Below the pieces are notes generated by a model. The model saw only the letters and a program-made list of their open reading frames with translations. It made no database searches and had not been told where the DNA came from. DNA of 64,000 bases from Escherichia phage CMSTMSU: sequence record MH494197.1; one strand, written 5' to 3'. How positions within the stretch are numbered: the first letter of the stretch is position 1; every line of letters starts with the position of its first letter. Positions 46,015-64,000 of the stretch are shown here, one piece after another. Position numbers and translations under genes: made by a program.

Positions 46015-46230
46015 TCATTCTTTAGATATCACCTTGTTACGTAAGGCACTTAACAATACGTCAGTGTAGATGTTTTGATAGTTTGTTCCTACGAAAGCAC
46101 CCAACTTCATTTCAGCTATTATAACACATTTGTCCTCTTGTGCAATAGACTTGTCTAAAGAAATACTAACAACTTTCCTTCTTATAGCTTGTAATCTCCA
46201 ATGATACTGATACTCATTTAGGGTTATCAT
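46015..46230 (-). CDS. family B paralog
   Basis: core FVGTNYQNIYTDVLL. Confidence 0.45.
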   Translation of the reverse strand: MITLNEYQYHWRLQAIRRKVVSISLDKSIAQEDKCVIIAEMKLGAFVGTNYQNIYTDVLLSALRNKVISKE

Positions 46231-46465
46231 TCTCTCGCCTCCATATCTCGGTTCTAATGTGTTGACATTGTGCTTCGATGAACATATCTATTGATTTGGC
46301 AATTGCGTTTTTATCTGTGCCAGTCATCAGTACAAGCATCTCGGCCTCACAGTGAAGTAAACGCATGATATCATAGGGTAATATTCCAGATACCGTGTCA
46401 TAGTGTTTCTGTGCCAGTGTCTGTAATAGTTTACAATACATTTTGTGATTTAGTCTGTGTCGCAT
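46214..46465 (-). CDS. family B-like paralog, degenerate
   Basis: LMTGTDKNAIAKSIDMFI in place of core. Confidence 0.35.
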   Translation of the reverse strand: MRHRLNHKMYCKLLQTLAQKHYDTVSGILPYDIMRLLHCEAEMLVLMTGTDKNAIAKSIDMFIEAQCQHIRTEIWRRENDNPK

Positions 46466-47587: not shown

Positions 47588-47770
47588 TTAAAAATGAATC
47601 CAATCGTCAACATACTCTTCCTGATGGTTTGTGTTCAGTACAGCCAACATGCGGATCTCTGCTCTTGCAACTTGGATTTCAGTTTTAGAAAGGTCTTTGC
47701 TGATATCAAACATTAAGTCCATGTATTTCAAGATAAGACCGAATGATTGGGTTCGTGTTATAGTTTTCAT
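47588..47770 (-). CDS. family B paralog
   Basis: core VLNTNHQEEYVDDWI. Confidence 0.4.
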   Translation of the reverse strand: MKTITRTQSFGLILKYMDLMFDISKDLSKTEIQVARAEIRMLAVLNTNHQEEYVDDWIHF

Positions 47771-47967
47771 TGTTTCCTCGTGGACAATATTTCATTTTTC
47801 AATGCATCCATATATTGAATCACCCATCTTCCCTGATAGCTTGTTCCCAATGTAATCAAAAGGTATAACTCAATTCGTTCTAAGTTTGTGTCTGTGTTAT
47901 AAATCTTTACCATGTTTTTACGTAACAGTTCTTGATAATCTTCTTTATTTAAAATACGCATTTTCAT
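47767..47967 (-). CDS. family B paralog
   Basis: MKMRILNKEDYQ start; core TLGTSYQGRWVIQYM. Confidence 0.45.
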   Translation of the reverse strand: MKMRILNKEDYQELLRKNMVKIYNTDTNLERIELYLLITLGTSYQGRWVIQYMDALKNEILSTRKQ

Positions 47968-48161
47968 AGTCTACCTTTTATGTCCCTTCGTAATTCTTGT
48001 AAGTATAGTTCGATATACTTTTCTTGATAGTTAGTTCCTATGAAAAGTTTCATAACCAATTCACGCTTATATGCAATACCACGGATATGTGACATATGTA
48101 GGATATATGCCATGTTGGATATGAGTGTGTGGTTGTGCTCTTCTTCAGTTAAAATACGCAT
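47964..48161 (-). CDS. family B paralog
   Basis: MRILTEEEH start; core FIGTNYQEKYIELYL. Confidence 0.45.
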   Translation of the reverse strand: MRILTEEEHNHTLISNMAYILHMSHIRGIAYKRELVMKLFIGTNYQEKYIELYLQELRRDIKGRL

Positions 48162-48877
48162 AGGGACTCCATTAAAAATAATATCAATCCCATAATATAC
48201 GATTCATATAAAAGTCAATAACATTTTATTCGTAATACCCTTTATCGAAGTCGCTAAGGTTACCCGCCCTTTAGCCCCTACGCATTTTGCCATAGTCCAA
48301 TCCTTTTATTCATAAAAGTCAAGGGATTACCTATGCATTTTTTAACGCTGAAGTTTAAAAATGCCTTGACTTTTTATGATTCAGTACTAAATCCTTTTAC
48401 GCATTAATCCTTCGTTACGCTTACGATTATCTGTGTATCCCCATAGTCCTGCCATACTTCCACGCCAGCCGTCGCCCGGTTAGTCGTGCTGTCATCTGCT
48501 TAATGGTCTTAGGCTTTAGTGGAACCTGTTGCAGTACTGTACGCATAGTATCATCGACGTTATCGTGTACGCCTGCAATAGTGCCTAGGACGCTGTATAC
48601 GTGTATAGAACATATGTATGCCCTCCTGATATAGTTAAGGCCGCTACAAGGCGGCCTATGATGTTTGGTGATGTGTAACGCTTACAGTCCTAAGATAGTG
48701 CGTGCTTCGTTACGTTCCGTGCACAGCTGCATGATGTGAGCAAGTAAGTCCTTGCTAATGTATCCGGTGTTCATAGCTTCACGAATAGATACATCATAAG
48801 CACCGAACCCGTGCGAACGATACGCACATCATTCAGGTTAGTATTATAGATACCGCCGAGATCAACGGCTTCGAATA

Positions 48878-49081
48878 CTACATCAACAGAATATTCATTG
48901 TTGCCATCGTGGAAGTTTTCCAGTGCAATAGTATTGGATACCGCCCAACGTTTGCAGTTTCAATGATGCGGCACTGTTCCGGTTGGATAGTGCCATTACT
49001 TACAGCGTACTCCAGTGCATCTTTACCAAAAGTCCGAGCCAGTACTAAAACGTCAGCGAAGGAAGTGATTGAGAAGGTCAT
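48878..49081 (-). CDS. hypothetical small protein (67 aa), probably continues beyond a frameshift
   Basis: ATG MTFSITSF... with AAGGAG SD directly downstream of a promoter/stem-loop cassette; the track merges it with the upstream gene because no stop intervenes. Confidence 0.4.
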   Translation of the reverse strand: MTFSITSFADVLVLARTFGKDALEYAVSNGTIQPEQCRIIETANVGRYPILLHWKTSTMATMNILLM

Positions 49082-49099
49082 GATAAAACTCCTTAATTT

Positions 49100-49161
49100 A
49101 GGAGGGAGAACCATTTCCTCTCTATGTAAAACATTATACATGAATCTAAGTACTATGCAAG
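49100..49161 (-). promoter_or_regulatory. PeSL-like cassette (promoter plus 5' stem-loop)
   Basis: minus strand TTGCAT - 16 nt - TATAAT, then short hairpin, then SD/ATG. Confidence 0.5.
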
Positions 49162-49164
49162 TAC

Positions 49165-49498
49165 TTTTACATTTTAATACCGGATTCAGGTAGCGGTGAG
49201 ATCCATATTCTGGATCGGTTTCGGTCCAGTACTGTAAATCGATAGTACCTTTCGCGTTAATCTTGTCTACCAGCTTATTCATCTTAGCGTATACTACGTC
49301 AGCATCGATGCGTTTAAAGCCAGTAGCTTTAGTGAAGTAGTAGTGATTTGCTTCACTATCATTAAGGATATACCGAGCACCGTTTGCCGTTTGTGCGATA
49401 ATGATTGAGTATTCTACGTTACGGTCGAGGCCGTCGATGAATACAGAGGAAACATTAGTACGGATGAAAGCTTTAACGATAGCGATTGAAGTAGTCAT
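49165..49498 (-). CDS. hypothetical protein, 3' end unresolved
   Basis: MTTSIAIVKAFIRTN...; reading frame runs through the downstream cassette without a stop. Confidence 0.35.
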
Positions 49499-49587
49499 TT
49501 TGAATCTCCTAACTTTGTGGGCCGTCGCACCATTGCCGCCCTACGAGATACATTATTGCAGTACTGATATACTTTGTCAATACTTTT

Positions 49588-49725
49588 TATTAATAGTTTT
49601 AGTTCCACCAGCAGATAGTTACTCACCGTTATTAACTATATATTTTGGATACACCTATGCACCCTGTGGGCTAGTTTTTGTCTATGCGTATATATAGCAG
49701 GACTGACCGAGTCAATCCCTTTTTA
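49588..49725. repeat. ~130 bp repeated intergenic element, copy 1
   Basis: shares ATGCACCCTGTGGGCTAG ... TATATAGCA(A)GGACTGACCGAGTCAATCCCTTTTT with copies at 52.3, 55.6 and 60.1 kb. Confidence 0.6.
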
Positions 49726-49956
49726 TTCTTTTTGTTAGATGATTCTCCAATCATCAACGATCATGGTAAGATACCGAACCAGTGATTCGAGTGATTCGTG
49801 TTCTCGATAGTCTGCCGCTCCACCAGCGGTACAAGTACAGCCGATTAAGCCGTTTTGTAGTTCCGGATCTTTACGTCGATCTGGTTGGCTTTAGCTTCTT
49901 TCAGTACTTCAACCGGGCGAGAGCGATAGACATAATGTTTTACTCCAAACTATTGG

Positions 49957-50016
49957 CGGGAGAACTATTCCCCGCTCTATGTAAAACATTATACATTACT
50001 GGTTAGTACTGTCAAA
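49957..50016 (-). promoter_or_regulatory. PeSL-like cassette
   Basis: TTGACA - 16 nt - TATAAT on minus strand, hairpin GCGGG...CCCGC just downstream. Confidence 0.55.
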
Positions 50017-50022
50017 TAGTTT

Positions 50023-50280
50023 TTATGAAATATCTTCGATGTAGTCGGCCCATTTCATTTTTTCAGTACTGTCAATGGCTACCGGATTATTTGGATCAAA
50101 CCATTCACCATTACCGCAGTACATACCCACGGCTACGGTTTTATAGCCATCCCGGGCCGCACACCACGACATTGCACGATAGATATGGCCTTTAACTGGT
50201 TGCAGTACTGGTAACGTTTTATGGTCTTCTACGTAGGCCATAGCTTGTGGATTTACCCGATATTGTGTGAACTGTTCCAT
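50023..50280 (-). CDS. hypothetical protein (85 aa)
   Basis: track ORF; promoter-like sequence upstream. Confidence 0.45.
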   Translation of the reverse strand: MEQFTQYRVNPQAMAYVEDHKTLPVLQPVKGHIYRAMSWCAARDGYKTVAVGMYCGNGEWFDPNNPVAIDSTEKMKWADYIEDIS

Positions 50281-50593
50281 TATGTTTCCCCTTGTAGTTA
50301 GTAAAGTTATTACATCAGTACTATCAAGCTATGTCAATAGTACTGAAATAAAACTTTTAGATTAGATTATTGAGGCCGTCAATGGTAGACTCACTTTCTT
50401 CTTTCTCCCATTGTCGGTAGTACTTCCATGCTTCATGATAGGTGGCGATCAGTTCATCTTTTGATCCGGTTACATGCCAGTACTGAATCACGGTGAGCGG
50501 TGTTATAGATAGAATCGAATGATTTCTTCTCTTCTGCCGTTAGCTACTTCCCGCATCAGTTCATCAAAGTTAGCCATTTTATTACTCCTTTTA

Positions 50594-50650
50594 GTGGGGA
50601 GGATATCTCCCTATGCAAAACATTATACTTTGTTTTAGTTATTATGCAAG
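50594..50650 (-). promoter_or_regulatory. PeSL-like cassette
   Basis: TTGCAT - 15 nt - TATAAT; hairpin GGGAG GATAT CTCCC. Confidence 0.5.
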
Positions 50651-50902
50651 TACTTTTTCATATAAACATTAAATTCTACACCGCCGTAACCTTCCACGAT
50701 GATATGTTTTGCGTTATCACGTTTGCACATAGTGAAACCATCGTTTACGTGTTTTGCATTTTCGGGCGACATCACCGATAGCGGCACATACGGCACTAAT
50801 AACAGTATTCCGCAAAGTACTGGTATCATTGGCGGTCATAGTAGTTTGCAGTACTACGTTGTCGTATACGTGTGCATTGATAGTGATTTCGATAGTGTTC
50901 AT
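50635..50902 (-). CDS. hypothetical small protein, frame-shifted
   Basis: ORFs 50717..50902 and 50635..50829 overlap in two frames and look like one gene. Confidence 0.35.
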
Positions 50903-50916
50903 GGTGTATCTCGACT

Positions 50917-50978
50917 GGCGGGAGAACTATTCCCCGCTCTATGTAAAACATTATACGTTAATCTAACTACAATGCAAG
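50917..50978 (-). promoter_or_regulatory. PeSL-like cassette
   Basis: TTGCAT - 16 nt - TATAAT; hairpin GCGGGAGAACTATTCCCCGC. Confidence 0.55.
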
Positions 50979-51233
50979 TACTTTTAAATTTTATTTCCGA
51001 TATAGTCCGGTCTATTCTTTTCGGTCATACGCTTTGCTAATGTTTGCATATGGCTTATTGCTTGTAGTGTATCCTCTTCCGGGATGAATCGAGATAATCA
51101 GGATCATTCTTCACCTTGCAATGATTATGATAGCGTAGTACTGCCAGTACTTTTTAACTTCTTCTACTGTCATAATAAGTACCCACTTCGTTAGCTTTCA
51201 GGTTAGTATCAATCATCAGTGGATTTTTGTAGT

Positions 51234-51440
51234 TCACAAAACGAGTAGTTTTCTCGATAGCGAATCCCATATAATCCAGCTTACTAACAGTACATTCATT
51301 CTTAAAACTTCTTTCGCTGCATCGATGGCTGATTGCATGGATAACCGACCATCTAAATTAATGTTTCCAAATGATCCACCAGCAGAAGTAGGATTACCGT
51401 TCATATCTTTAATGATCATAGTAGCGGAGTAGCTGGACAT
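51234..51440 (-). CDS. hypothetical small protein
   Basis: track ORF 68 aa; AAGGA SD; cassette immediately upstream. Confidence 0.45.
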   Translation of the reverse strand: MSSYSATMIIKDMNGNPTSAGGSFGNINLDGRLSMQSAIDAAKEVLRMNVLLVSWIIWDSLSRKLLVL

Positions 51441-51463
51441 AATTTTGTTTCCTTTTATTGGTG

Positions 51464-51520
51464 TGGGAGAACTATTCTCCCTTGATGTAAACTATTATAC
51501 AGTACTGATATACTTTGTCA
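51464..51520 (-). promoter_or_regulatory. PeSL-like cassette
   Basis: TTGACA - 16 nt - TATAAT; perfect hairpin GGGAGA ACTAT TCTCCC. Confidence 0.6.
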
Positions 51521-51559
51521 AATACTTTTATTCGCCCATATAGATTAGATTATCATCGC

Positions 51560-51930
51560 CTACATAGGATCGCAAACGTTGATTTCTTCGCAGTACTTCG
51601 TGAATACATCGCCATAGTGACCTAAACCACGATCCCAAAACCAGTTCCGTGACCTTCGCGGGTAAGGAACAGATCATGACCAGCTTGCTCATAACCGTAA
51701 TCAATAAACATACCGCGAACTACTTCCAGATCATTACCGTGTTTCTCAATGAAGCGAGAACATGCAATCACTGCCGCTTGATGGGCTTGCTCTGATAATT
51801 CATAATCTTCCGTAATCGCCGTTCTCATTGTGTACAGTACTGAATTGCATAGCTTCAATGTAAGCTACAACCATTGCAGCATGATTTTTATCGTTAGTGA
51901 TGTTCCGAGCGAGATTAGTAGTAGTAGACA
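51560..51930 (-). CDS. hypothetical protein, frame-shifted
   Basis: ATG MSTTTNLARN...; continues in two other frames through ...REGHGTGFWDRGLGHYGDVF... Confidence 0.35.
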
Positions 51931-51951
51931 TGATTTTATTCCTTTTAGTAT

Positions 51952-52009
51952 CGGGGAGAACTATTCTCCCTTGATGTAAACTATTATACAGTACTAATAT
52001 ACTTTGTCA
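51952..52009 (-). promoter_or_regulatory. PeSL-like cassette
   Basis: TTGACA - 16 nt - TATAAT; hairpin GGGGAGAACTATTCTCCC. Confidence 0.6.
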
Positions 52010-52254
52010 ATACTTAATTACGTTTAAAATGATATGTGCCTTTATCATCCTGTACGCCCCATACTGATTTACCATCAACACCAGTGAAGCCGGATTGTAA
52101 TTCAATATGGAAACCATTATTATCAACTACAAAAACTTTTTATTTTCATCCCGATAACATTGATATTCTGAATCAACATTAAAGGCCGCATCATTCAGAA
52201 GATTAGAAGCGTAAATGCAAGTCATTGTAGTCATGATTTTATTCCTTATTGCCG

Positions 52255-52308
52255 TGGAACCGTTCCTCTCGATATAAAACATTATACTTGATTCTAAGTA
52301 TAATGCAA
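52255..52308 (-). promoter_or_regulatory. PeSL-like cassette
   Basis: TTGCAT - 16 nt - TATAAT; hairpin GGAAC C GTTCC, stem sequence differs from other copies but pairing is kept. Confidence 0.55.
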
Positions 52309-52311
52309 GTA

Positions 52312-52446
52312 CTTTTTAAAATAGTTTTCAGTACTGAATACTTATATAATAGATACACTTCCGCACCCTATGGGTCAGTGAGTTATCTCTCAATGGATAT
52401 ATATAGCAAAGGACTGACCGAGTCAATCCCTTTTTAATCTTTTTAT
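52312..52446. repeat. ~130 bp repeated intergenic element, copy 2
   Basis: CGCACCCTATGGGTCAGTGAG...GGACTGACCGAGTCAATCCCTTTTTAATC. Confidence 0.6.
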
Positions 52447-52507
52447 CGTGTTACCTTACTTGCTGCCACATCACGCTTTTTATAGTACTGATTCCAGATA
52501 TTGCTGG

Positions 52508-52825
52508 TTAAACCGTAATCAAGTACTTTAATAAGTCCATTACGATCCCGCCGATATTCTGTTTTCTGATATCTCTTATCGTTAGTGTTGATAATGTATC
52601 ATCGACGTGTTGTAGTGCATCAGCAAAGCGGTGCTGGCGTTCAATGGCATTACGTTTAATATTGTACTTTAATTCATTGCACGCGTTTACGTGCTTTACA
52701 CTGCCTTTACTTGCAGTACTCAACCGATCCATAACGATAAACATATTATCAGGATCGCATAAATGCATATGCACCTTTGCAAAGTACTGTTTCAACTGAG
52801 GGCGGTCATAGTCTAAAAATTCCAT
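52508..52825 (-). CDS. hypothetical protein (105 aa)
   Basis: track ORF. Confidence 0.45.
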   Translation of the reverse strand: MEFLDYDRPQLKQYFAKVHMHLCDPDNMFIVMDRLSTASKGSVKHVNACNELKYNIKRNAIERQHRFADALQHVDDTLSTLTIRDIRKQNIGGIVMDLLKYLITV

Positions 52826-52891
52826 ACCTTACATTCAGTTTCATTTTGTTCGACACCCGCATCACAATTCGCGACCTTAATCACTAACCGA

Positions 52892-53080
52892 TCATTTAAA
52901 GCGAAAACTATACGGGAAGATCCGCCCGATGATCTCCAGTCCAGCTAACCGACAAGCTGAAAGGATCTCTTTGTTGGTTTCCATTTCTGACAGTGTACGG
53001 ATGAATTTAGTATAATTACGCATTGCATGTTCTCCTTGAGTTAATGAAACTATATTACAGTACTTTACTATCAATGGCAA
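52892..53080 (-). CDS. hypothetical small protein
   Basis: track ORF 62 aa. Confidence 0.35.
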   Translation of the reverse strand: MPLIVKYCNIVSLTQGEHAMRNYTKFIRTLSEMETNKEILSACRLAGLEIIGRIFPYSFRFK

Positions 53081-53296
53081 CTACTTTTTAACATTAACGG
53101 CGTGAATCACTTCCTTAGTGTTTTTAGTACTGAATACTTTCGCCGCTCCTTGTTCGACCGTGATACGATAGCGACCATTAACATCAACCATATTAATAAA
53201 GTCCGGCGTGCTGAATGGTGTTGTTTTGCATTTGAGTACTGTTAACAGTTCCACCAGCGATGTAGTTTCTTTGATACGTTTTTCTAAAGTAATCAT
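53081..53296 (-). CDS. hypothetical small protein
   Basis: track ORF 71 aa; promoter-like repeat upstream, also found before the next gene. Confidence 0.4.
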   Translation of the reverse strand: MITLEKRIKETTSLVELLTVLKCKTTPFSTPDFINMVDVNGRYRITVEQGAAKVFSTKNTKEVIHAVNVKK

Positions 53297-53434
53297 TTTG
53301 TTTCTCCCCGTGTTGGTATGTACATATAGTACTAAAACATTTGAGTACTGTCAATTAGATAATATTATATTTCTTAAAATAAAATGCGTCTTGTGTTGGT
53401 TGATACTCGATACCGTTACCGTTATTGACTTCAA

Positions 53435-53629
53435 CTAATAAACCTTTGTCAATAAGTTTTTAATAGTACGATACCCTTGTTGAAAATTGGTAAAATGTGA
53501 ATCATTACGAAAGGTATAACCGTGCTTAACTGCTTCATCAATAGTTTTCTTTTCGATTTTAGATAATTTCATTTTGTTTCTCCCGTGTTGGTATATGTAC
53601 ATAGTACTAAAACATTTGAGTACTGTCAA
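53435..53629 (-). CDS. hypothetical small protein
   Basis: track ORF; likely start at internal MKLSKIEKK with GGGAGA SD. Confidence 0.4.
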   Translation of the reverse strand: MTVLKCFSTMYIYQHGRNKMKLSKIEKKTIDEAVKHGYTFRNDSHFTNFQQGYRTIKNLLTKVY

Positions 53630-53890
53630 CGTGATATTAGTTTTATTTTCTTATTGTATTGTTGATGCTCATAAAGGTTTATCTTTCCTGTGTTCTCGAT
53701 TACTATCCTGTTGTTAGTGTCCACATCGATTACACGCAGTTTCCGTTGCTTAACTTCCGGGTAATAGGTTACCATTAATAAACTCATTAGCAAGCTGTAC
53801 GGCCTTTGTGATGATTCTCTTCGGTGCTTTATAGTGTACCCGTAAGATGTTATCTTTATATAGTTGAACCTTAATCATTTTGTTTGTCCT

Positions 53891-53916
53891 ATAAAAAGGC
53901 GGGAACTGATCCCGCC
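53891..53916 (-). terminator. rho-independent terminator (minus strand)
   Basis: stem GGCGGGA/TCCCGCC, loop ACTGA, followed by U-run in minus transcript. Confidence 0.6.
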
Positions 53917-54423
53917 GTGTTGTTAGTACTGCAAGTTATTAGATAACCGGCGGCGTTTACTGTATACTGTTACACGATTACCCTTACGGTCGTGTCGGAT
54001 CTCTTTCTGGTTGCGAATCAGTTCACTTGGACGCTTAAGGTTTGCCGTGATCCGCGTGAGTCCATGCATTGGCATTTACCTGTACTTTGATATCAGAACC
54101 AGCGATAAACTCATCTTGTGCGTCAGTATTGCCGCCAGCATATCCGCTCGTTTTAGTTCTGCTGCTGTTAGTACTGGCTCAGGTGAATTCACAATATCAG
54201 AGATCTTTGAACTGTACGGCCCAGCGTTGGCCTTTCGGTGCATCTTTGCCCATGTCTTTAAATGCTGCTCCTTCCTCGCGTGCAACAATACGGGCAGCTT
54301 CACGGGTAGCGTAGAATTTAGTAATCATGGTATACATCCTATTAGTTAAGTTAGTACTACAAGTTAGAGTCTATTATAAAGTACTATCTGGGCAATGTCA
54401 AATAGTACTTTAAATGGATTCTA

Positions 54424-54745
54424 TTACATGTCTTTCTTACGTTTTACATCGTGGTAGCGAACTGTTATTTCTTTGTTGATCTCTTCCTCGATGCGGTGAA
54501 TAACTTTTTCTTTCGGGTTGAAACCTATAACGGTTTCTTTAATGATCTCAAGCCCGTGTATTCGCCTTGTGTACCGTAACCGTATGTAAAGGTTTCGTGT
54601 CCCGTGTCTTCCAGCGGTCGCCAATTAACGCAGACACGTAGCAAGAGTGGTAAGTATTGCCGTGTGAATCAGTCCACCGATTAACGTTAATGTCAAAGGA
54701 GGTTACAATTTTCAATTCTACTTTCTGGGCAAGGATCATAGCCAT
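54424..54745 (-). CDS. hypothetical protein, frame-shifted
   Basis: MAMILAQKVELKIV...NVNRWTDSHGNTYHSCYVS; two overlapping track ORFs. Confidence 0.4.
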
Positions 54746-54764
54746 TTTATTTCTCTCTTTTAGT

Positions 54765-54825
54765 TAGGAGGAACCATTCCCTCACTTGATGTAAACTATT
54801 ATACAGTACTAAGATACTTTGTCAA
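54765..54825 (-). promoter_or_regulatory. PeSL-like cassette
   Basis: TTGACA - 16 nt - TATAAT; hairpin in 5' leader. Confidence 0.55.
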
Positions 54826-54843
54826 TACTTATTTTTGGAAAGT

Positions 54844-55008
54844 TTACGCATTAATTCTACGCTTTCTTGTGAACGTTTTGCTACCGGCAAGCTGCATGGG
54901 TAGTAAACATTTTGTATAGTCTGACGCTTTGCCACCGAACCGAGCGGCACGTTCACGGGCACTTGGAACTAATACTATTTCTTTCTTGCAGATAGTGCAC
55001 TTAGCCAT
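54844..55008 (-). CDS. small Cys-containing protein (54 aa)
   Basis: MAKCTICKKEIVLVPSARERAARFGGKASDY...; own cassette upstream. Confidence 0.4.
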   Translation of the reverse strand: MAKCTICKKEIVLVPSARERAARFGGKASDYTKCLLPMQLAGSKTFTRKRRINA

Positions 55009-55027
55009 TTTATTTCTCTCTCTTTGT

Positions 55028-55089
55028 TAGAGGGGAACCGTTTCCTCACTCGATGTAAACTATTATACAGTACTAAGATACTTTGTCAA
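55028..55089 (-). promoter_or_regulatory. PeSL-like cassette
   Basis: TTGACA - 16 nt - TATAAT; hairpin GGAA ACGG TTCC. Confidence 0.55.
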
Positions 55090-55093
55090 TACT

Positions 55094-55366
55094 TAATTAT
55101 TGTAAATGTCGTGAATAGTGATAAAGTTTTTACGACCGTAAACCTGCAAATCAATATCAATGTAGTGCTTATCTAGTACATCCTCGACGCTTAACGCGGT
55201 GTCGTGGATATCTTCGTAGAATTGAGTATCTACAATCTTGCTTAAGTCATCCGGCGTTAACTCATCGTTAAGCAGTTGAACCGCCGGATATCTGCTTCAC
55301 GTTTCCAGTCTTCCAGTTAGTAGTCAGTACTTGTTCGATTTCGTTAGCTGTCAGTAGAATCCGCAT
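55094..55366 (-). CDS. hypothetical protein, frame-shifted
   Basis: MRILLTANEIEQVL... then ...LLNDELTPDDLSKIVDTQFYEDIHD... in another frame. Confidence 0.35.
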
Positions 55367-55547
55367 TTTTATGTTTCCTTATCAGTGGTTGATGTAAGTA
55401 TTATACTCGTTTACTTTCTATTGTCAAACTATTTTATCAGGGAGTTTTTCGTATGTCTTACTCGACTACTTAACGGGGTTACTTGTTTCGTTCCCCGTCC
55501 TGATGTAAAACATTATACTTGATTCTAAGTACAATGCAAGTACTTTT

Positions 55548-55670
55548 TAAAAATAGTTTTCAGTACTAGCCACCAGCAAACAATAGATACATTTATGCAC
55601 CCTGTGGGCTGATTTGTTTCTATGCGTATATAATAGCAAAGGACTGAATCCCTTATTCAATTATTTTTAA
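55548..55670. repeat. ~130 bp repeated intergenic element, copy 3
   Basis: ATGCACCCTGTGGGCTGA...TATAATAGCAAAGGACTGAATCCC. Confidence 0.55.
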
Positions 55671-55816
55671 ACTTCTTTCGGGTTGCGATAGGTGATAGCG
55701 TTCGGGTACATTTGTTTAATGTTATTCCATGCCCGGTTGACATTGTAACCACTTGATCGAATCAGTTGGTTACTACCGACACCTTGAAACACTACTTCGA
55801 ATAAGAATTCTTTCAT
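55668..55816 (-). CDS. small hypothetical protein (49 aa)
   Basis: MKEFLFEVVFQGVGSNQLIRSSGYNVNRAW... Confidence 0.3.
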
Positions 55817-56286
55817 GCTTTCACCTCGCGATCTGCTTTACCTTTACGCCGACATTACTAATTGTTCGCGTTGCCATAAGTCGAGTGATACAAAAGTTTT
55901 GCGGTATCACTTTTAGGATACTCGCCATTAGTACCTAACCGATAAAACAGATCTTTCAGTACTGATAATTCTACTTGGATCATTATACTTTCTCTTTGTT
56001 GGGAGGGAACTATTCTTCCGATATAAAACATTATACACTTTATTCAGTACAAGTACTTTTAATCTTTCAGCCAATGATCCTGAATGAATTTTTCACCGGA
56101 ACCTTGCTGCATTGATTGTAACAGACGTTCACGATGAGCGGCGGCGAATTGCTCAGTACTATGCGTTACACCGGTTGATATCTGGATTCACCATTGGGGC
56201 TGATGTATTGTACATCCCACGGTTTTTCGTTAGTATCAGACCATTTACGAACGATTAGTTGACCTTGCATTTTTCTTTCTCTTAGT

Positions 56287-56346
56287 GGGGAGAATCATTT
56301 CTCCCCTTCATGTAACTTATTATACAGTACTAGATTATCTTGTCAA
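56287..56346 (-). promoter_or_regulatory. PeSL-like cassette
   Basis: TTGACA - 16 nt - TATAAT; perfect 8 bp hairpin GGGGAGAA TCAT TTCTCCCC. Confidence 0.6.
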
Positions 56347-56351
56347 TAGTT

Positions 56352-56636
56352 TTATTCACCTTGTTTGAATTTAGTTTTCTCCATTGATTCCATGATTGCA
56401 ACCAATACGCCGTGGATCTCGCTTAACGCGGAATCACTAAAAGCATTAATGAATAGTCGATCATTCTCGCGAATATTTTTAATGTACTTTTCAGCAGTAG
56501 TTGCGAATTCATTCAACGGTAGATCAAATGCTTTATCCCATGATGGATGGCGTAATTGTAACAGTACTGGATTATCACGATCACGGGAAAACGTACCAGT
56601 GATGAAACATACGCCCGAATACTTTCGAACTGGCAA
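56352..56636 (-). CDS. hypothetical protein (94 aa)
   Basis: track ORF. Confidence 0.45.
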   Translation of the reverse strand: MPVRKYSGVCFITGTFSRDRDNPVLLQLRHPSWDKAFDLPLNEFATTAEKYIKNIRENDRLFINAFSDSALSEIHGVLVAIMESMEKTKFKQGE

Positions 56637-56959
56637 CGGACTTCCTTTGTGATAGTAGTATGAATGTACATTTATTGTTATCCTCTATTAAATTAATATT
56701 ACAGTTTATGAATCAATTCTTTATCTAAGCGATAGCGTACATTATTAATAGTAACGGCATTGTTTTAATGCTACGCTGTACAGGTCCACCAGCAATAACA
56801 AATGTTGCTTTATTACCCCGAACAATGATAGCACTTCCGTGATTACCGAAATCATCTTGTACTAAAATACTTGATAAGTTTTCCATTTTATTTCTCTTAG
56901 TAGGGAAGATGTTTCCTTGATGTAAGTACTATAACAGTACTGAAAACTAATTGCAAGTA

Positions 56960-57313
56960 CTATGATAAAATCATGATAGGATATTCACTATCGATCAGTA
57001 CCTCGAATCCGAACCCTTCGTACCATTCTTTAAGATTAAAGGCGTTATCTTCTCCGTATCGCATTCTAAGATGATACAATCTGAATCATCAGCGGCATCG
57101 ATAAAGGCATTCATTAATTCGTTACCTTCACCATTGCCCCGACTATCAGGATCAACATAAAGAGAATCAATGAAAGCAACACGGTCATAATCAAGATCCG
57201 GTGCAATGATTCCACGTTTAACAAACCAGTACTGCAATTGTGCTACTTTGCTGTACCTGATAACCAGTGATCTCGCCATTGTCAGTAGTACGCGTGATAT
57301 GTTGTATTCCCAT
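56960..57313 (-). CDS. GNAT-family N-acetyltransferase-like small protein, frame-shifted twice
   Basis: acetyl-CoA-binding motif ...VDPDSRGNGEGNELMNAFIDAA... and C-terminal ...EWYEGFGFEVL... readable across three frames. Confidence 0.5.
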
Positions 57314-57962
57314 GATTTCTATCCTCAGTTAAGATATAAAACATTATACACTATCTTTCAGTACTGTCAATTACTTTTATCTCATAGATCTATGCCAACA
57401 ATTACGCGGATCTCTTTAAAAGTACTATCATGATCCTCCGGCAAGTAATACAATACATGCACCTATAACGGCCCGGCGTCGATTCTCAGGGATTTTACCG
57501 CCGCAGTCGAGGCAATGTACAGTGATTCTCTTTGTGCGTTAATTTGCTTTCTAGCGTGGTTAACGGCGGCCTGAATCACTGCGTTAATCTCGTCTTGTTC
57601 GGCCCCGTCTTTCGCGAATCCTACAGCCATTATTTTAACCTCATTATAAAAATACTATAGTACTGTAATGCTACAATAATACTACTAGTGCTAATCTTAT
57701 TCAAACCACATGATACTACATATCCACCAGCATTACCACGGATAGTAACGCCTTTGTACTGTCTATATAAATTCAACTGCGTATATTGCCTTTGATCAAG
57801 AATTGATCAGAATTATACGCCTTATGCTAAATTGATCCAGTACTTTTGATCATTTATTGATCGATGTTATATAGTTACATTTGTGCACCCTATGGGTTAG
57901 TGACGTTCTCGTCTTGATGTAAGTATTATGCCAGTACTGGAGGATATTGTCAATAGATTATT

Positions 57963-58160
57963 TTAATTTTTTCTATCATTAATTAATGCTTTCAGTACTA
58001 TACTAATAACTTGCAATGATTCATCAATGACAATGAAATTATTCTCTTTCATTAGATGATAGTTACCATTGATTGTATATTCTAACGAGTACTGTTTACG
58101 TTTAATTTTTGATAATGTTTCTATTTGTTTTTGTACTGATTTCATGCTAATCATTGTCAA
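57963..58160 (-). CDS. hypothetical small protein
   Basis: track ORF 65 aa. Confidence 0.35.
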   Translation of the reverse strand: MTMISMKSVQKQIETLSKIKRKQYSLEYTINGNYHLMKENNFIVIDESLQVISIVLKALINDRKN

Positions 58161-58983
58161 ACGTCCTGTAACGCATTCTAACGAGATAAACGGTTGAGTA
58201 CTGGCATTGTATAGGGTAATGATTAAAGCCCACCAGCGTTAACCAGTGGGCTATAATCTTACATCTTGCGGATAATCTTAACAGTATCTTTCACCGATTT
58301 ACCGTTTTGCTGACATTGCTCGATCATCGCGTATTGTTCTGCGGTCAGATCCTCGCCAGTTTTTGCCAGTACTGCGTCGATGAATGAATCCAGTGCGATC
58401 ATTTTGTTTCTCTCTTAGGTTAAGTTAACTACTGTTTATAAAACTTATTATACAGTACTATCAAACTATGTCAATAGTACTGGTAATATATTTTAGCGGT
58501 AGTCGTCGTATGCTTTATTCACGGCGAATATAACTTTCAAAGGCTTCGTCTACCGTTTCATACTCCCGAACATAATCACCATATGAAACTACATACATAC
58601 CTTTTGATCTTCAAACGTCATGATGATAGAATCCAGACCAACGATTTCAGTTTTTGCGATGATAGCCATTTTTAATTCCTTAGTAGTGTAGTTGATAAAA
58701 GTTATTATGTCAGTACTATCAAACTATGTCAATAGTACTGTGATAATATTTTAGTTAATGATAGTCAGTGTAAAATTGTAATCCCCTGCCCGTATAGTAC
58801 TTTATCGCCGAACGTTCCAACACGTTTCATATTGCAATAGATACCCATAACACTTTTACATCTTTGATATTCCGAACGCCAGTAATATCCTTGTTTAAAT
58901 GATCGTGATCAGAAAATAAAACTTGTTTTGCATTTTTCAGTACAGTGCAGATATTAGCCATTTTGTTTTCTCTTCTGTTAGTG

Positions 58984-59041
58984 GGGAGAAGTTTTTCTCC
59001 CTTGATGTAAACTATTATACAGTACTATAATCTATTGTCAA
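58984..59041 (-). promoter_or_regulatory. PeSL-like cassette
   Basis: TTGACA - 16 nt - TATAAT; hairpin GGGAGA AGTTTT TCTCCC. Confidence 0.6.
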
Positions 59042-59414
59042 ACTATTTTTTATATTATTCGAAATCTTCTGGACCGGACTGATAATCATCTTCACCGTAT
59101 GCACTTTCTAACCGCTCGCCAGTGCAATCATCAGTTAGTGAGTCATCCTCATAGTTCACGTCTACGCCAGTGATGTAAAACTGGCTATCGTCTGGATCAT
59201 TGAAATTAATTTTCTGGATGTTTACAATAACTGTATTGATGCCGTGACACCGCCATCAGCCGTTACAAAGTACTGATATTTTTCACAACCGCCTGAATTG
59301 AAACCGTAATTAATTTCGGCCCGACCATCACTTAAACGCAGTGTCTGAGCGATGATTTCATTTTCAAAGTTAGATTGAGCAATTGCAATAGTCATGATTT
59401 GTTTCTTATTATCA

Positions 59415-59471
59415 GGGAAACCGTTTCCCTTTCGATGTAAAACATTATACGCTTATCAGGAAGTAATGCAA
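59415..59471 (-). promoter_or_regulatory. PeSL-like cassette
   Basis: TTGCAT - 16 nt - TATAAT; hairpin GGGAAA CCG TTTCCC. Confidence 0.55.
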
Positions 59472-59957
59472 GTACTATTTCACGTTAATTTCAAAGTACT
59501 GCTCTTTGATGTTTTCCTGTTGGTAAATCTCGTTTAATGCTTTAAGATCTAAAACCTGTTTACCTGCTGCCTGAATATACTTTTAAGAGTCGCTAACAGC
59601 TTCTCAGGCGTGTTTGTAGTCTTACGTGTTGGGATCTTATCGTGCCCCATAGCGTAGTACTGCTTACGTGCTATAGTACTGATAACACTGCGGTACGGTT
59701 CCATGATCAGCTTGTCTGTATTCGTCGCTATCCCCAAACTTCATACCGTGGATCGCAAAGGTCATCATCATGCGGTCGTTATCGCGGATATTGTGGGGCA
59801 GTCGGCAAGCTCGCGAGTCAGTGACATAGTGATCCCCACGTCGCCACCCAGCGGTAAAGGTCGGGCGATAAAGAAACCGTTAGGGAATACTTTCAGGAAG
59901 TTTTCTTGAACTGCTGCGACGAATTCGATGCTATTCATAATTCATTTCCTTAATTAG

Positions 59958-60015
59958 TGGGGAAGTTGTTTCCTCTTGATGTAAAACATTATACGCCTAT
60001 TGAGATAGTTTGCAA
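59958..60015 (-). promoter_or_regulatory. PeSL-like cassette
   Basis: TTGCAA - 16 nt - TATAAT; hairpin GGAA GTTGT TTCC. Confidence 0.5.
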
Positions 60016-60032
60016 GTACTTTCTACAAATAC

Positions 60033-60160
60033 TTTTAAAATAGTTTTCAGTACTCAATACTCATATAATAGATACACTTATGCACCCTGTGGGCTAGTGA
60101 GCTATCTCTCAATGAATATATAATAGCAAAATGGCTGACCGAGTCAACCACTTTTTCATT
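60033..60160. repeat. ~130 bp repeated intergenic element, copy 4
   Basis: ATGCACCCTGTGGGCTAGTGAGCTATCTCTCAATGAATATATAATAGCAAAATGGCTGACCGAGTCAACC. Confidence 0.6.
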
Positions 60161-60271
60161 TATTTTAGCTTTTAGAATCGCCGCCTTTCGCGTCATGCCT
60201 TGCTTGATGTATTCTGTACTTTCGCTTTACGTGCATTCGCTTTATTTGCTTTCGTAAACGCCGAACAACTT

Positions 60272-60580
60272 TTATAGTTTAAACCTGTTGGATTCATTTA
60301 AATCACCATAAAGAATAGATAGGTTACTAACAACGCCGCGATCAATGCACCGACCGAACTGTAATAAGCTAATGATCTCATTTTTAGCCTGAAAATAATG
60401 TTTAATTTGAGCGGCGGTCAGTGCACAATTACGCAGGAAGTTTTCTGTATAACTTTTGCGAGTACTGAAAGAGAATTGACCTTTGCTGCTGCCGATAGTA
60501 ACATCAAACCGAGCGTTGTATTGTTTCATTTTGTTTCTCCTGTTATTGGGGAGAATCATTTCTCCCTTCATGTAAAACAT
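60272..60580 (-). CDS. hypothetical protein
   Basis: track ORF 102 aa; probable start at internal MKQYNARFDV. Confidence 0.4.
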   Translation of the reverse strand: MFYMKGEMILPNNRRNKMKQYNARFDVTIGSSKGQFSFSTRKSYTENFLRNCALTAAQIKHYFQAKNEIISLLQFGRCIDRGVVSNLSILYGDLNESNRFKL

Positions 60581-60605
60581 TATACAGTACTAAAACTAAT
60601 TGCAA
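60548..60605 (-). promoter_or_regulatory. PeSL-like cassette
   Basis: TTGCAA - 15 nt - TATAAT; hairpin GGGGAGAATCATTTCTCCC, identical to copy at 60771. Confidence 0.55.
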
Positions 60606-60770
60606 GTACTATTTTTAGATTTACGCAAACTTTCTACCATCTCAGGAGTAAGGTCTGCGGGTAGGAAACTACTTCATCAACGAAACGTAAAGGAATACCC
60701 CAGCGAAAGGTGAACGTGCTTTCTTAGTATTACTCTTTTTGATGCTTTCATTTCATATTCTTAATTAGTG

Positions 60771-60827
60771 GGGAGAATCATTTCTCCCTTCATGTAAAAC
60801 ATTATACGCGTTTAAAACTAATTGCAA
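60771..60827 (-). promoter_or_regulatory. PeSL-like cassette
   Basis: TTGCAA - 15 nt - TATAAT; hairpin GGGGAGAATCATTTCTCCC. Confidence 0.55.
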
Positions 60828-61691
60828 GTACTATTTGAAAGTAAATGCTCATACGCTACATTAACTACGTTTTCAATAACCGACTGTACAGAAAGATCCC
60901 CACTTCCGGCTATAGTAGAAATCGCTTACAGTAGTGTCATCGTATGCAAATACTTTACCGTGACTGCATCAATCACATACATATTAACCTTTAAGATGTC
61001 GATCTTATCCTGTACAGTAAGCATATTAATTAACCTTTTAAGTACTGACTTAAGTAATCTTGTTGATCTTCGGTGATTGCAGCCATCTTCCCTAGTACTG
61101 GATTAATGATATAATCCCTGTAACGTCCTGTAACGCATTCTCAGGCGGTTTAACGGCTGGGGTAGCCATAGCCATTGCCGACTTGTTCGACGCTGTAACG
61201 CTCATAAAGGCGGCATTCTTCCGGTGTTAACATAGCATCAATGCGTTTCATTGGTTTAATGATGCTTTCGATCTCATTCAGTACTTGATTAACGTTCATG
61301 GTATAATCCCAATATAAGCGGCCTAAATCGACCGCTAACGATGTTTTGATTAATAGGTGTATGGTTGACGTTCAAACAATGATTGCACGTTGTACGCCCC
61401 GCTTATGGGCTTTGCTGGTAAATCAATTTTATATTGTTCACGCTTAAAGATAATAAAACGGCAATTGTTTTAACATCAAAATTGATTGAACGTTCCGAGT
61501 TTACCATCGTGCACAAATACAAGATAACCGCTCGCTACTTGTTTTGTAGTACTGGTTGCAACCATAGACCGCCGAACATGTGTACCTGCGTCGATTAAAG
61601 TACTGATATTTTTCATTTTACTATCCTCTTAAGTTGATTTAATTTCTTTCCCTATGCAGACACTGTACCAAAGTATCTGCATAAAGTAAAG

Positions 61692-62013
61692 CTAATTAAA
61701 GATCTTTTTACGTTTTACATCCTGTACAGTACAATGCAACGGGATAGACAAATCATTGCACAAACGATAGAGGGAGGTTTCATCAGTATTAAGCCCGTCT
61801 ACTGATTCCTTTAAGAGAGATAACGCCGTTTGTTGGTATGCATCTTCATAGCCATAAGTAAATGATTCAACCGCCAGATCATTCAAGCCGTTATCCAGTT
61901 CGACGCTTACATGACAAGAATGATGTATTGCCATATGAATCAGACCAACGTTTACCGTCAACATTGATTGCACGGATTGCAGCCGAAACGGTGTTAATGA
62001 TAGTTTTAGCCAT
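61692..62013 (-). CDS. hypothetical protein, frame-shifted; paralog of 54424..54745
   Basis: MAKTIINTVSAAIRAINVDGKRWSDSYGN then ...HHSCHVSVELDNG...; shares RW-x-DS-x-GN-x-YHSC-x-VS with 54424..54745. Confidence 0.4.
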
Positions 62014-62263
62014 TTTAGTATTCCTTAAATTAATATGTGTCGTCTTGATAAAATCTATTATGCCAGTACTATCAAACTATGTCAATAGTACTGTGATAAT
62101 ATTTTTACTTACTTTTTGCTTTCTTTATTGCTTCCACCGGTCGGCCCATTCTTTACCCCATACTTGTAAATTATAATGGTACTGGCAAAGTGCAACGCCC
62201 CGCTTTAAACCAGTAATAGATTTTTACCACATTGACAAGTTTTCATTTTAGTTTCCTTGTAGT

Positions 62264-62321
62264 GGGAGAACCATTTTCCCCTTGATGTAATGTATTATAC
62301 TTTATTCGATTTACTTTGCAA
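62264..62321 (-). promoter_or_regulatory. PeSL-like cassette
   Basis: TTGCAA - 16 nt - TATAAT; hairpin GGGAGAACCATTTTCCC. Confidence 0.5.
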
Positions 62322-62338
62322 GTACTTTTTAATTTAAT

Positions 62339-62551
62339 TCATCCGTAAAGGATACGCTCAACGCCCAAATCAGTTAAACTAATCGACGGCACTTGATAGG
62401 TTTCAATGTATGCTACACTTGCCCACTGACCGAACTCATTAACGGCCGTATTCATTGCATTTTGCAATTCCACACCTTCCTTGTTGGTAATGACTGCAAC
62501 TACTTGTTCGTTGCCAGTAGTACCAGATACGCGAGTAATGATAATAGCCAT
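62339..62551 (-). CDS. hypothetical small protein
   Basis: track ORF 70 aa. Confidence 0.4.
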   Translation of the reverse strand: MAIIITRVSGTTGNEQVVAVITNKEGVELQNAMNTAVNEFGQWASVAYIETYQVPSISLTDLGVERILYG

Positions 62552-62986
62552 TTTTTAATTCCTATTCAGTAGTTGATGTATGTATTATGCCAGTACTTAA
62601 AACTATTGTCAAACTATTTTTAAAGTTTATCAATGATTGATGCCGTTTCATTGATAGTCTTGCCGTGTTTTGCACACGCGATAACTGCTTTAAATTCCTT
62701 TGATGACCAATCTTTCTTACTGCATACTGACATTACTTGTAAAGTAAAACAATCCAGTTCATAAGTATTCATCTTTATATCCTCAGTTAGTTAAGGTGTC
62801 TGCCTTGATGTAATTAATTATACGCTAATCTCTTAATCGTGCAAGTACTTTTATTACTTTTTGCAAAATACTTTAAACGCTCTCAATCGCATTACAACGA
62901 CCTTAACGCCACCAGCTAGGCAATGCATCAGATAATCAGTTTAAAGCGTTAGAATCGTTTCTAGGCGGTGCTGGTGGCGTAAACGA

Positions 62987-63015
62987 TAAAAAAAGCCCAC
63001 CGTTTAAGGTGGGCT
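62987..63015 (-). terminator. rho-independent terminator (minus strand)
   Basis: 8 bp GC-rich stem AGCCCACC/GGTGGGCT, loop GTTTAA, followed by 7 U in minus transcript; 13 nt downstream of stop at 63028. Confidence 0.7.
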
Positions 63016-63027
63016 AGTGATTCAGTT

Positions 63028-63406
63028 TTATGCTTCAACTTTGCGATGAGCTTCGATCCATTCCTCGCGAGTCATACCACTGGAGTTAATCGCGTCCAGT
63101 ACTACCGCAATGCAGTTACCACGCACCGGAATCAGATATTCTTCCCGTTGTACTACCGCTACGCGTTCCTGAATCCATTTTTGGCTTTTACTTCTGGCTT
63201 GTCTTCCCATACTTAACCGCCGTGGCTTTTGTGCCATCTCTGTAACTACTTCCAGATCCAACTACTGCCGCCTGAATACTTTCGATTGTTGCTTGTAGTT
63301 CTGCTTCACGGGCCGCCTTTGCCGCTTCAATTTCTGCCGCTTTATTTGCTTGTAGTTCTTTCGCAGTACTGTAAGCGATGTTAAAATTATTGCGTACCGC
63401 TTTCAT
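63028..63406 (-). CDS. hypothetical protein, frame-shifted
   Basis: overlapping ORFs 63188..63406 (Ala/Glu-rich, coiled-coil-like) and 63028..63261. Confidence 0.35.
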
Positions 63407-63690
63407 GGTATCGTTATCCAGTTCAGCCGGATCTCAGCCGCGACGTTAGTTTCATTTGCACCAGTGCTTTGATGAATGATTTTACATTAGCCATTTTATA
63501 AATCCTCAATTAAAGTTTAGTTTACGTTTATTAGTGTATCAAAGTTTTCTGACGTGTCCAGTTTTTCGTTCGACTTACTGGCGGTCTACTTAGTGCTCCC
63601 CGTCTTGATGTAATACATTCTACGCCTTTTTGCGGTAATGTCAACTACTTTCTTAAAACTATTTTCAAAGTATCTCAGTACTACGATACT

Positions 63691-63717
63691 ACAAAACAAA
63701 AAGCCCACCCGTGGGCT
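63691..63717 (-). terminator. rho-independent terminator (minus strand)
   Basis: stem AGCCCAC/GTGGGCT with U-rich tail in minus transcript. Confidence 0.55.
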
Positions 63718-64000
63718 GTATTAATCAGTAAGTAAAATATTAAACACTTTACCATTTAACGTTATTGGTGCACTGCTACCGTGCTCAAGATCCGTTAGTA
63801 TACCTGCAATCGCTTTATCATTGGCGACCTTTCCAGTGTCCAACAGTACGACAGTACTGATAAGATTAACGCTCGTTTCAATATCATAATGCACGGCGTT
63901 AAGGAGTTGTGTATACTGCTTTCGTTAAGTAAAACTATTCGTGCTGTCATGATGTACCCGTAGTATCTATCAACGGCAATTAATAACGCCGGAATGCGTT

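Follow-up and report, generated by a model that had tools for sequence, protein, structure and literature searches.

A step in GC content and codon choice at the inner edge of the direct terminal repeat of Asteriusvirus-type jumbo coliphages

The stretch of DNA analysed here (in the following the window) comprises 64,000 nucleotides (nt) of the sequence record MH494197.1 from Escherichia phage CMSTMSU, and the element in question is a direct terminal repeat (DTR) of approximately 21 kb, the inner 15.7 kb of which occupy positions 48,257 to 64,000 of the window on the minus strand, as judged from mapping to the phages fEgEco12, vB_Ec-M-J and WPEC3. The right-hand 18 kb of the window are 92-96% identical to the Asteriusvirus jumbo phages of Escherichia coli WPEC3, Ecwhy_1, vB_Ec-M-J, fEgEco12, G17, PBECO4 and 121Q, and judged by this identity the source of the window is an Asteriusvirus-type jumbo coliphage. 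All open reading frames (ORFs) of at least 100 amino acids (aa) in the window lie on the minus strand, and the annotated genes in the first 144 kb of fEgEco12 all have a single orientation that matches it, so the strict unidirectional transcription proposed in an earlier reading of the bare letters (the sequence-only reading) holds. The DTR genes run from the chromosome end inwards. The left part of the window (1 to 48,256, minus strand, GC content 0.328) is the start of the unique region with its packed and overlapping small genes, and to the right the DTR extends approximately 5.5 kb past the window end, position 64,000 corresponding to position 5,553 in fEgEco12.

The two parts of the window differ clearly in base composition. 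The best single GC change point over the 64 kb, determined by maximum likelihood, is found at 48,230-48,250 with a gain in log-likelihood of 87.5 nats; on crossing it from left to right GC rises from 0.328 to 0.386, and a 2-kb profile is concordant. The sequence-only reading had placed a compositional step at about 48.2 kb, which is correct within approximately 50 bp. That reading saw a boundary between two modules but missed its identity, namely that it is the inner edge of the DTR and, at the same time, the right-hand end of the chromosome. In fEgEco12, the first and the last 20,993 bases (1-20,993 and 353,741-374,733) agree at 100% identity, and PhageTerm together with restriction digests has confirmed the termini of this phage (PMC13070987). 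For vB_Ec-M-J, “Direct Terminal Repeats” are annotated at 1-21,525 in GenBank. By pairwise alignment the inner DTR ends of these two phages both map to window position 48,257, which is also where the WPEC3 record, deposited in the opposite orientation, has its first base. The same kind of repeat is carried by G17, where coverage indicates approximately 20 kb, and by Sharanji, where PhageTerm gives 20,668 bp, and in the relatives the boundary coincides with the right-hand chromosome end, which reads ...GGGCGGGTAACCT on the minus strand. With a change point at 48,230-48,250 and the DTR ends of the relatives at 48,257, the step in GC and codons can be identified as the inner DTR edge; the combined feature at 48,230 to 48,257, to which no strand is assigned, is based on the change point, the boundary mapping and the end sequences. 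For the isolate itself the DTR is predicted from 96% identity and collinearity with fEgEco12.

Codons and gene architecture could not be read reliably from the window. In a three-way alignment measured on 46,920-56,300, 80 deletions and 3 insertions were specific for the window within 9.4 kb, and most of the deletions were of 1 bp and located in homopolymers, while both aligned relatives were almost free of such changes. Among the orthologues of fEgEco12 genes, 39 out of 46 in the DTR and 39 out of 60 in the unique region are broken in the window and intact in the relatives. The homopolymer deletions are almost certainly sequencing or assembly errors of the source record, and ORF sizes taken from the window are therefore unreliable, whereas GC is unaffected. 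Direct gene calling on the window, which gave coding fractions of 0.59 and 0.31, was dropped once these values had been traced to the deletions, and because of the frameshifts the codon and architecture analysis was moved to the full genome of the clean relative fEgEco12, which is 96% identical to the window.

The DTR of fEgEco12 contains 56 annotated genes, mostly without assigned function, with a median length of 78 aa compared to 128 aa in the next 40 kb, a median intergenic gap of 83 nt and a coding fraction of 0.68. Past the DTR boundary the starts and stops of neighbouring genes overlap. A tandem array of approximately 28 paralogous genes of 65-87 aa belonging to phrog_4148, a family without assigned function (42,240 to 48,161, minus strand; identified from PHROG, all-against-all BLASTP and repeats) begins right at the boundary, has its own promoter and consists of translationally coupled genes. 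The first promoter-like site past the DTR edge, TTGACT-N16-TATTAT at approximately 48,190 to 48,217 on the minus strand, is located upstream of this array and has its counterpart at position 21,055 in fEgEco12. The claim that genes become very small to the right of the step holds only in part: the medians in fEgEco12 agree with it, but it was partly an artefact of the deletions in the window, and the 6 kb directly to the left of the boundary also hold genes of 65-87 aa.

The DTR is rich in promoter-like sites resembling the sigma-70 consensus. Its part in the window contains eleven sites of the form TTGACA-N16/17-TATAAT with 12 out of 12 matches. They all lie on the minus strand, and no such site occurs in the adjacent 15.7 kb. 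One is the TTGACA-N16-TATAAT site at 49,988 to 50,015, and the others are found at 59041-59014, 58474-58447, 57370-57343, 56346-56319, 55427-55400, 55089-55062, 54825-54798, 54401-54373, 52010-51983 and 51521-51494. When up to two mismatches are allowed, the DTR part of the window contains 22 sites against an expectation of 3.9 +/- 2.0, and the many sites with 10-11 out of 12 matches are likewise confined to the coding strand. In fEgEco12, 12 of the 31 perfect consensus sites lie within the DTR, which makes up 6% of the genome, and none of them is on the opposite strand. The same DTR has 49 promoter-like sites, 35 of which are placed 25-110 nt upstream of an annotated start; comparing this number to the 56 genes, the promoter cassette for every gene proposed in the sequence-only reading exists for most of the genes, but not for all.

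In a typical cassette of approximately 85 nt, a near-perfect sigma-70 promoter is preceded by an A-rich stretch and followed by a leader hairpin and a Shine-Dalgarno site. In most cassettes the leader has the order “...ACATC(A/G)AG”, 8-bp hairpin, A-rich stretch, Shine-Dalgarno site and ATG, and the stem starts approximately 10-16 nt downstream of the -10 box in all cassettes that bear a hairpin. An example is GCGGGGAAtagtTCTCCCGC at 49,955 to 49,975 (minus strand), which begins approximately 12 nt past the -10 box and is followed by a Shine-Dalgarno site and ATG. The 5' arm of the hairpin is G-rich and the 3' arm is C-rich (for example GGGGAGAA/TTCTCCCC), with folding energies of -10 to -16 kcal/mol. 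Across 34 distinct leaders the pairing persists through GC-to-CG and GC-to-AU changes and numerous G.U pairs, in which the 5' arm invariably supplies the G, and these compensatory and G.U changes together with the fixed position of G argue for a structure that acts in the sense RNA. The hairpin may serve as a 5' stabiliser, an attenuator or a binding site. Only few canonical terminators are present in the DTR part, which probably results in read-through from successive promoters, so that the units are not strictly monocistronic. A strong terminator-like hairpin, AAAGTGGTTGAC-TCG-GTCAGCCATTTT followed by GCTATTATAT, is found at 60,128 to 60,154 on the minus strand.

The composition of the DTR was then quantified in fEgEco12. 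GC is 0.358 for the whole genome, 0.385 for the DTR and 0.355 for the unique part, and the genome's GC minimum (0.317-0.331 in 10-kb windows) is located at 30-60 kb, just inside the left DTR. The same GC step is seen at both DTR edges. High overall GC as such was rejected as a hallmark of the DTR, since 5.4% of the 21-kb windows in the unique part reach the GC of the DTR, all of them in the tail-fibre region, which is higher. There the GC comes from codon positions 1 and 2, and the GC content at the third codon position (GC3) is the lowest, 0.246. What distinguishes the DTR is GC3 and codon choice: GC3 of DTR genes is 0.368 compared to 0.267 in the rest of the genome (Mann-Whitney p = 1.3e-14), every non-DTR block falls between 0.246 and 0.291, and in synonymous-site composition the DTR is alone of its kind within fEgEco12. 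Both the GC profile of the window and the codon usage of fEgEco12, two of the checks suggested with the sequence-only reading, accordingly show the step.

The impression of more enterobacterial codons (CTG, GCC, CGC) on the right-hand side was correct for all three. The fraction of CTG among leucine codons is 0.275 in the DTR and 0.077 in the rest of fEgEco12, of GCC among alanine codons 0.185 and 0.050, and of CGC among arginine codons 0.233 and 0.099. Using a sample of 34 E. coli K-12 genes as reference, the relative synonymous codon usage correlates with E. coli at 0.45 for the DTR and 0.085 for the unique part, and the codon shift from unique part to DTR correlates with the difference between E. 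coli and the unique part at r = 0.78 overall and r = 0.70 among G/C-ending codons. CTG, CCG, GGC and ATC are increased in the DTR, whereas CTC, CCC and GGG are not, and by this codon-specific pattern the shift differs from a uniform increase in GC. The arginine codon CGG has a frequency of 0.00 among the arginine codons of unique-region genes and 0.17 in the DTR. The left side was also described as rich in lysine, asparagine, isoleucine and tyrosine, for which the direction is right and the difference is modest, these residues amounting to 0.291 in the adjacent 40 kb and 0.258 in the DTR of fEgEco12. Collectively, there is a true boundary between modules at the proposed position, with a change in composition and codon choice as well as in the spacing of genes and the density of promoters.

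The cassettes also appear as recombination sites. When the DTRs of the window, fEgEco12 and vB_Ec-M-J were compared, 33 of the 40 breakpoint ends of gene-sized indels were found inside cassettes, which make up 24-29% of the DTR (binomial p = 4e-14), and several of the indels show 77-125 bp of doubly aligned sequence. One example is an extra mini-gene with its cassette at 59,481 to 59,931 (minus strand), located between two cassette copies and absent in fEgEco12 and vB_Ec-M-J; the alignment blocks at this position overlap by 95-96 bp in the relatives, which is the signature of recombination between cassette repeats. The gene content of the DTR varies widely among Asteriusviruses, with coverages of 12-88%. 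Moreover, phages of other genera, namely Justusliebigvirus muut, the phAPEC8-like SF1-1 and rV5-like phages, share four DTR segments (approximately 50,973-51,177, 54,752-55,518, 56,956-58,983 and 62,110-62,344) with 84-90% nucleotide identity, and in these phages the segments are located within similar arrays of mini-genes with promoter cassettes of approximately 90 bp and the same design. No such cross-genus matches were found in the 8 kb to the left of the boundary, the only stretch of the unique side that was searched.

We consider it likely that the DTR, with its edge at 48,257, is a first-expressed compartment that is driven by the host polymerase and has raised its GC by means of host-like codons. 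According to this explanation the RNA polymerase of the host would fire the DTR promoters once the DNA is in the cell, and the DTR genes would depend for their translation on a host machinery still unmodified, as the tRNA and translation genes of the phage, approximately 290 kb away (the tRNA genes of fEgEco12 are located at 291-295 kb), would become available only later. Translation before the arrival of phage tRNAs would plausibly favour host-like synonymous codons in the DTR genes, and a host-like codon choice increases GC3 and thereby the GC of the DTR. The repeated cassettes would function as patches of homology for the gain and loss of mini-genes and for their exchange with other large coliphages. 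Past the boundary the genome turns to packed, translationally coupled and very AT-rich operons, making the step visible. Gene import and GC-biased conversion may contribute to it. The difference in expression timing that the sequence-only reading considered is well supported, although indirectly, by the density of sigma-70 promoters, by RNA sequencing of the related phage PA5oct (PMC7318152) and by the parallels to T5 and SPO1 described below.

Several observations weigh against this explanation. The host-preferred codons GTG, ACC and AAC are not increased in the DTR, and CGG exceeds its frequency in E. coli. The region at 260-330 kb of fEgEco12 is rich in sigma-70-like promoters without having a raised GC3, from which it follows that early expression alone is insufficient for the codon shift. 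A literature search for an Asteriusvirus transcriptome found none. The leader hairpin is located downstream of the -10 box and lacks a U-tract, and the breakpoint statistic of 33 out of 40 is based on approximately 6 independent events. Finally, the window contains a single copy of the repeat, and the termini of the isolate are predicted from relatives that are 92-96% identical.

If the right-hand block were instead a foreign or mosaic island, recently imported from higher-GC coliphages or from the host and with a composition that has not yet drifted, the four segments shared with other genera, the lack of such matches in the 8 kb searched to the left of the boundary and the highly variable gene content of the DTR would be understood; the phages with the shared segments have the same cassette design and approximately 40% GC. 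The different origins suggested in the sequence-only reading have some foundation in these segments. However, the same step is found exactly at the DTR edge in a phage of another genus infecting another host, the Klebsiella phage fENko-Kae01 (GC change point at 19,575, DTR end at 19,736, GC 0.373 versus 0.339), where the fraction of CTG among leucine codons is 0.188 in the DTR and 0.031 outside, near-consensus promoters number 23 versus 6 and the cassettes are conserved. A step in the same direction, although weaker, is present in T5, where the genes of the terminal repeat (pre-early genes) have a GC3 of 0.381 and the next 44 genes a GC3 of 0.323. Such recurrence points to a stable and long-standing property of the compartment and not to a recent insertion. 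Furthermore, GCGC (0 sites versus 28 expected) and palindromic hexamers have been removed from the DTR as thoroughly as from the remaining genome, and the hexamer AGTACT, which is specific for the clade (see below), is denser there than anywhere else; neither would be expected of recent imports. We therefore regard recent import as an unlikely cause of the step; gene flow probably contributes, with the main cause elsewhere.

An increase in GC3 could also arise as a neutral by-product if the repeat were recombined or regenerated in each cycle with GC-biased repair of heteroduplexes. Such a process would fit the restriction of the GC3 rise to the DTR, other promoter-rich regions of early appearance lacking it, the GC of 0.356 in non-coding DTR sequence compared to 0.332 for non-ORF sequence elsewhere, and the recurrence of the effect in three unrelated phages with long repeats. 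On the other hand, the shift is codon-specific in the direction of E. coli: CTG is up 3.6-fold and CTC is not, CCG and GGC are up with CCC and GGG barely changed, and the correlation of 0.70 persists among codons that all end in G or C, a pattern that a uniform GC bias would not predict. The excess in the non-coding DTR sequence is largely accounted for by the GC-rich hairpins, and altogether we find biased repair an improbable main cause. That the step is an artefact of a mis-joined assembly or of sequencing errors might be suspected from the systematic homopolymer deletions, which are clearly present in the window. Yet these strike A/T and G/C runs alike and cannot explain a shift of 6 points in GC, the junction is collinear in many independently sequenced phages, among them Turkey3, TH47, SP27, fEgEco12 and vB_Ec-M-J, and the clean fEgEco12 genome shows the step at both of its DTR edges, by which this possibility is refuted and retains next to no probability. 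To explain why ORFs are sparse on the right-hand side, a cluster of tRNA or other non-coding RNA genes was also considered and then rejected, as ARAGORN and Rfam searches returned no tRNAs and no RNA families in the window; a permissive Rfam scan gave one snoRNA match only, at chance level.

The reading of the DTR as a first-expressed compartment is in line with known systems. The DTRs of the Asteriusvirus and Rak2-like phages G17, Sharanji, fEgEco12, vB_Ec-M-J, CBB and PA5oct are the same element as the one in the window, being 20-22 kb long (39 kb in PA5oct) with many small genes of unknown function reading inwards. In PA5oct RNA sequencing has shown that many of the 105 genes in the DTR are highly transcribed early and that two non-coding RNAs are located there (PMC7318152). 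The CBB paper (PMC5259590) proposes that the repeat forms a continuation of the early region and describes RpoD-like promoters in the repeat, but no composition step. The full texts of the fEgEco12 paper (PMC13070987) and the Sharanji paper contain no promoters and no GC or codon step for the repeat. The repeat of Asteriusvirus and its early expression in the clade are thus already published, and the present finding is correct and largely ordinary.

T5 has a long terminal repeat in which the sigma-70 RNA polymerase of the host transcribes the first-expressed genes for host takeover from very strong promoters (bioRxiv 10.1101/866236). It differs from the window in that the genes, approximately 17, are larger and lie on both strands, and in its injection stop signal and the proven entry of the DNA in two steps; the fit of the window to the T5 type consists in the location in a repeat and the sigma-70 promoters, with the timing taken only from the relative PA5oct. 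In SPO1 the terminal redundancy of 13.2 kb is a host-takeover module of 24 small genes, mostly without homologues, that mediates early host shutdown (PMC10531801). The likeness lies in a terminal repeat filled with a cluster of small genes, while SPO1 has a Gram-positive host and belongs to an unrelated phage family. The cassettes resemble the PeSL units of T4-like phages, which are intergenic units of approximately 100 bp with an AT-rich upstream part, a sigma-70 promoter, a stem-loop with G-tract and C-tract arms, a Shine-Dalgarno site and ATG, flanking small orphan genes and coinciding with the breakpoints of indels (PMC2839356, PMC4122927). The PeSL stem-loop is usually placed between -35 and -10 or over -10 (PMC2839356), by which it is transcribed only from upstream promoters and works as a terminator, whereas the stem-loop in the window follows the -10 box inside its own transcript. 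Also unlike PeSL units, which occupy internal hyperplastic regions, the cassettes fill a terminal repeat and carry AGTACT at fixed positions.

Morons of lambdoid phages are small accessory genes with their own promoter and a base composition unlike that of their neighbours, and in temperate phages they are inserted singly, every one of them being provided with a terminator. The DTR units share with them the small accessory genes, the own promoters and the deviant composition, but are different in forming a single array of approximately 55 units with few terminators.

With respect to annotation, the step in GC3 and codon choice, combined with the point at which spaced single-gene units give way to packed operons, allows the DTR edge to be recognized from sequence alone, which is of use because most deposited Asteriusvirus records have been opened arbitrarily or lack the repeat. 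The window adds a jumbo-phage example to the pattern of host-takeover genes in a terminal repeat known from T5 and SPO1, suggests that DTR genes are tuned to the translation machinery of the host, and extends cassette shuffling of the PeSL type beyond the T4-like phages with evidence of exchange among genera of large coliphages. The approximately 55 presumably early DTR genes without assigned function would be a natural place for host-shutoff and anti-defence functions. Among ten DTR proteins analyzed with Pfam, only a DksA/TraR-type C4 zinc finger, encoded by a frameshifted gene at 57,377 to 57,630 (minus strand; PF01258, E = 3.7e-09 for the orthologue in fEgEco12), and a GNAT N-acetyltransferase, encoded at 56,960 to 57,313 (minus strand; PF00583, E = 4.1e-09), were recognized, together with a sub-threshold kinase-like match, and PHROGs assigned DTR proteins only to families of unknown function.

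Less ordinary are the excess of AGTACT with its fixed positions in promoters and an element, CCCAYAGGGTG, confined to the DTR. The palindrome AGTACT is found 240 times in the window, where approximately 21 occurrences are expected; the DTR part has 6.2 sites per kb and the remainder of the window 3.0. Its distribution includes deserts with one site in 32,001-40,000 and none in 44,001-48,000, leaving the phrog_4148 array almost free of it. In fEgEco12 it is the top palindromic hexamer with 977 sites, an 8.2-fold excess, and it occurs in every reading frame, with no difference in density between coding and non-coding sequence; within ORFs 731 sites are found, compared to 178 +/- 11 under shuffling of synonymous codons. 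The Klebsiella phage fENko-Kae01 has a 12-fold excess, and the corresponding values for T5 and E. coli are 0.7-fold and 0.3-fold. Among promoter-like sites AGTACT is present at fixed offsets in 36 out of 41 within the DTR, compared to 12 out of 121 elsewhere, and two positions are used, one overlapping the 5' edge of the -35 box and one 7-8 nt before the -10 box. AGTACT as the core of the SlmA binding site of E. coli (GTGAGTACTCAC) was considered and found unlikely, since the hexamer is flanked by C...G in the present case, with a depletion of G at -1. A literature search gave no mention of AGTACT together with jumbo phages.

The element CCCA(C/T)AGGGTG is present in five exact copies in the window, all within the DTR on the minus strand (49660-49670, 52364-52374, 55598-55608, 57886-57896 and 60083-60093), and a match with one mismatch is located just outside the DTR at 47,512-47,522; 0.33 matches are expected by chance. 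All six copies in fEgEco12 are in the DTR on the coding strand, and the element is conserved in fENko-Kae01. The flanks are conserved as well (...TAG-core-CATAAGTGTATCTAT). The element is positioned approximately 25-30 nt past the -10 box of a promoter with no ORF behind it, and most copies are preceded by a strong terminator-like hairpin in a repeated unit, as at 60,128 to 60,154. No convincing stable RNA fold was found for the units, single-sequence z-scores ranging from -2.1 to +0.4, and folding of the alignment yielded a weak hairpin that is rich in G.U pairs and has a single compensatory pair. The element may act as a small RNA, as an RNA signal in cis or as a binding site for a protein.

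A more far-reaching proposal, which we put forward tentatively and hold to be rather improbable, is that the DTR forms a “first compartment” under separate regulation, with a promoter grammar of its own, a sequence-specific factor recognizing AGTACT and a cis-acting RNA or DNA signal. If so, the AGTACT factor would be a phage or host protein that switches the immediate-early promoters and acts genome-wide too, CCCAYAGGGTG would be a signal for antitermination, processing or an entry stop, and the host-like codons would reflect a polar or staged entry of the genome, as in T5.

An extreme avoidance of certain palindromes, of the kind seen for restriction sites, was also observed. GCGC is absent from the window (53 expected) and from the entire fEgEco12 genome (355 expected), and 22 palindromic hexamers with a summed expectation of 100 are missing from the window. 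Avoidance of palindromes was rejected as the reason for the differences in GC-rich 4-mers between the DTR and the unique region, since non-palindromic GC-rich 4-mers are shifted equally, and only GATC behaves specifically. It is found 77 times to the left of the boundary, where 144 are expected, and 75 times in the DTR, where 54 are expected, and in fEgEco12 the ratio of observed to expected GATC sites is 0.47 in the unique part and 1.20 in the DTR, with no difference for composition-matched non-palindromes.

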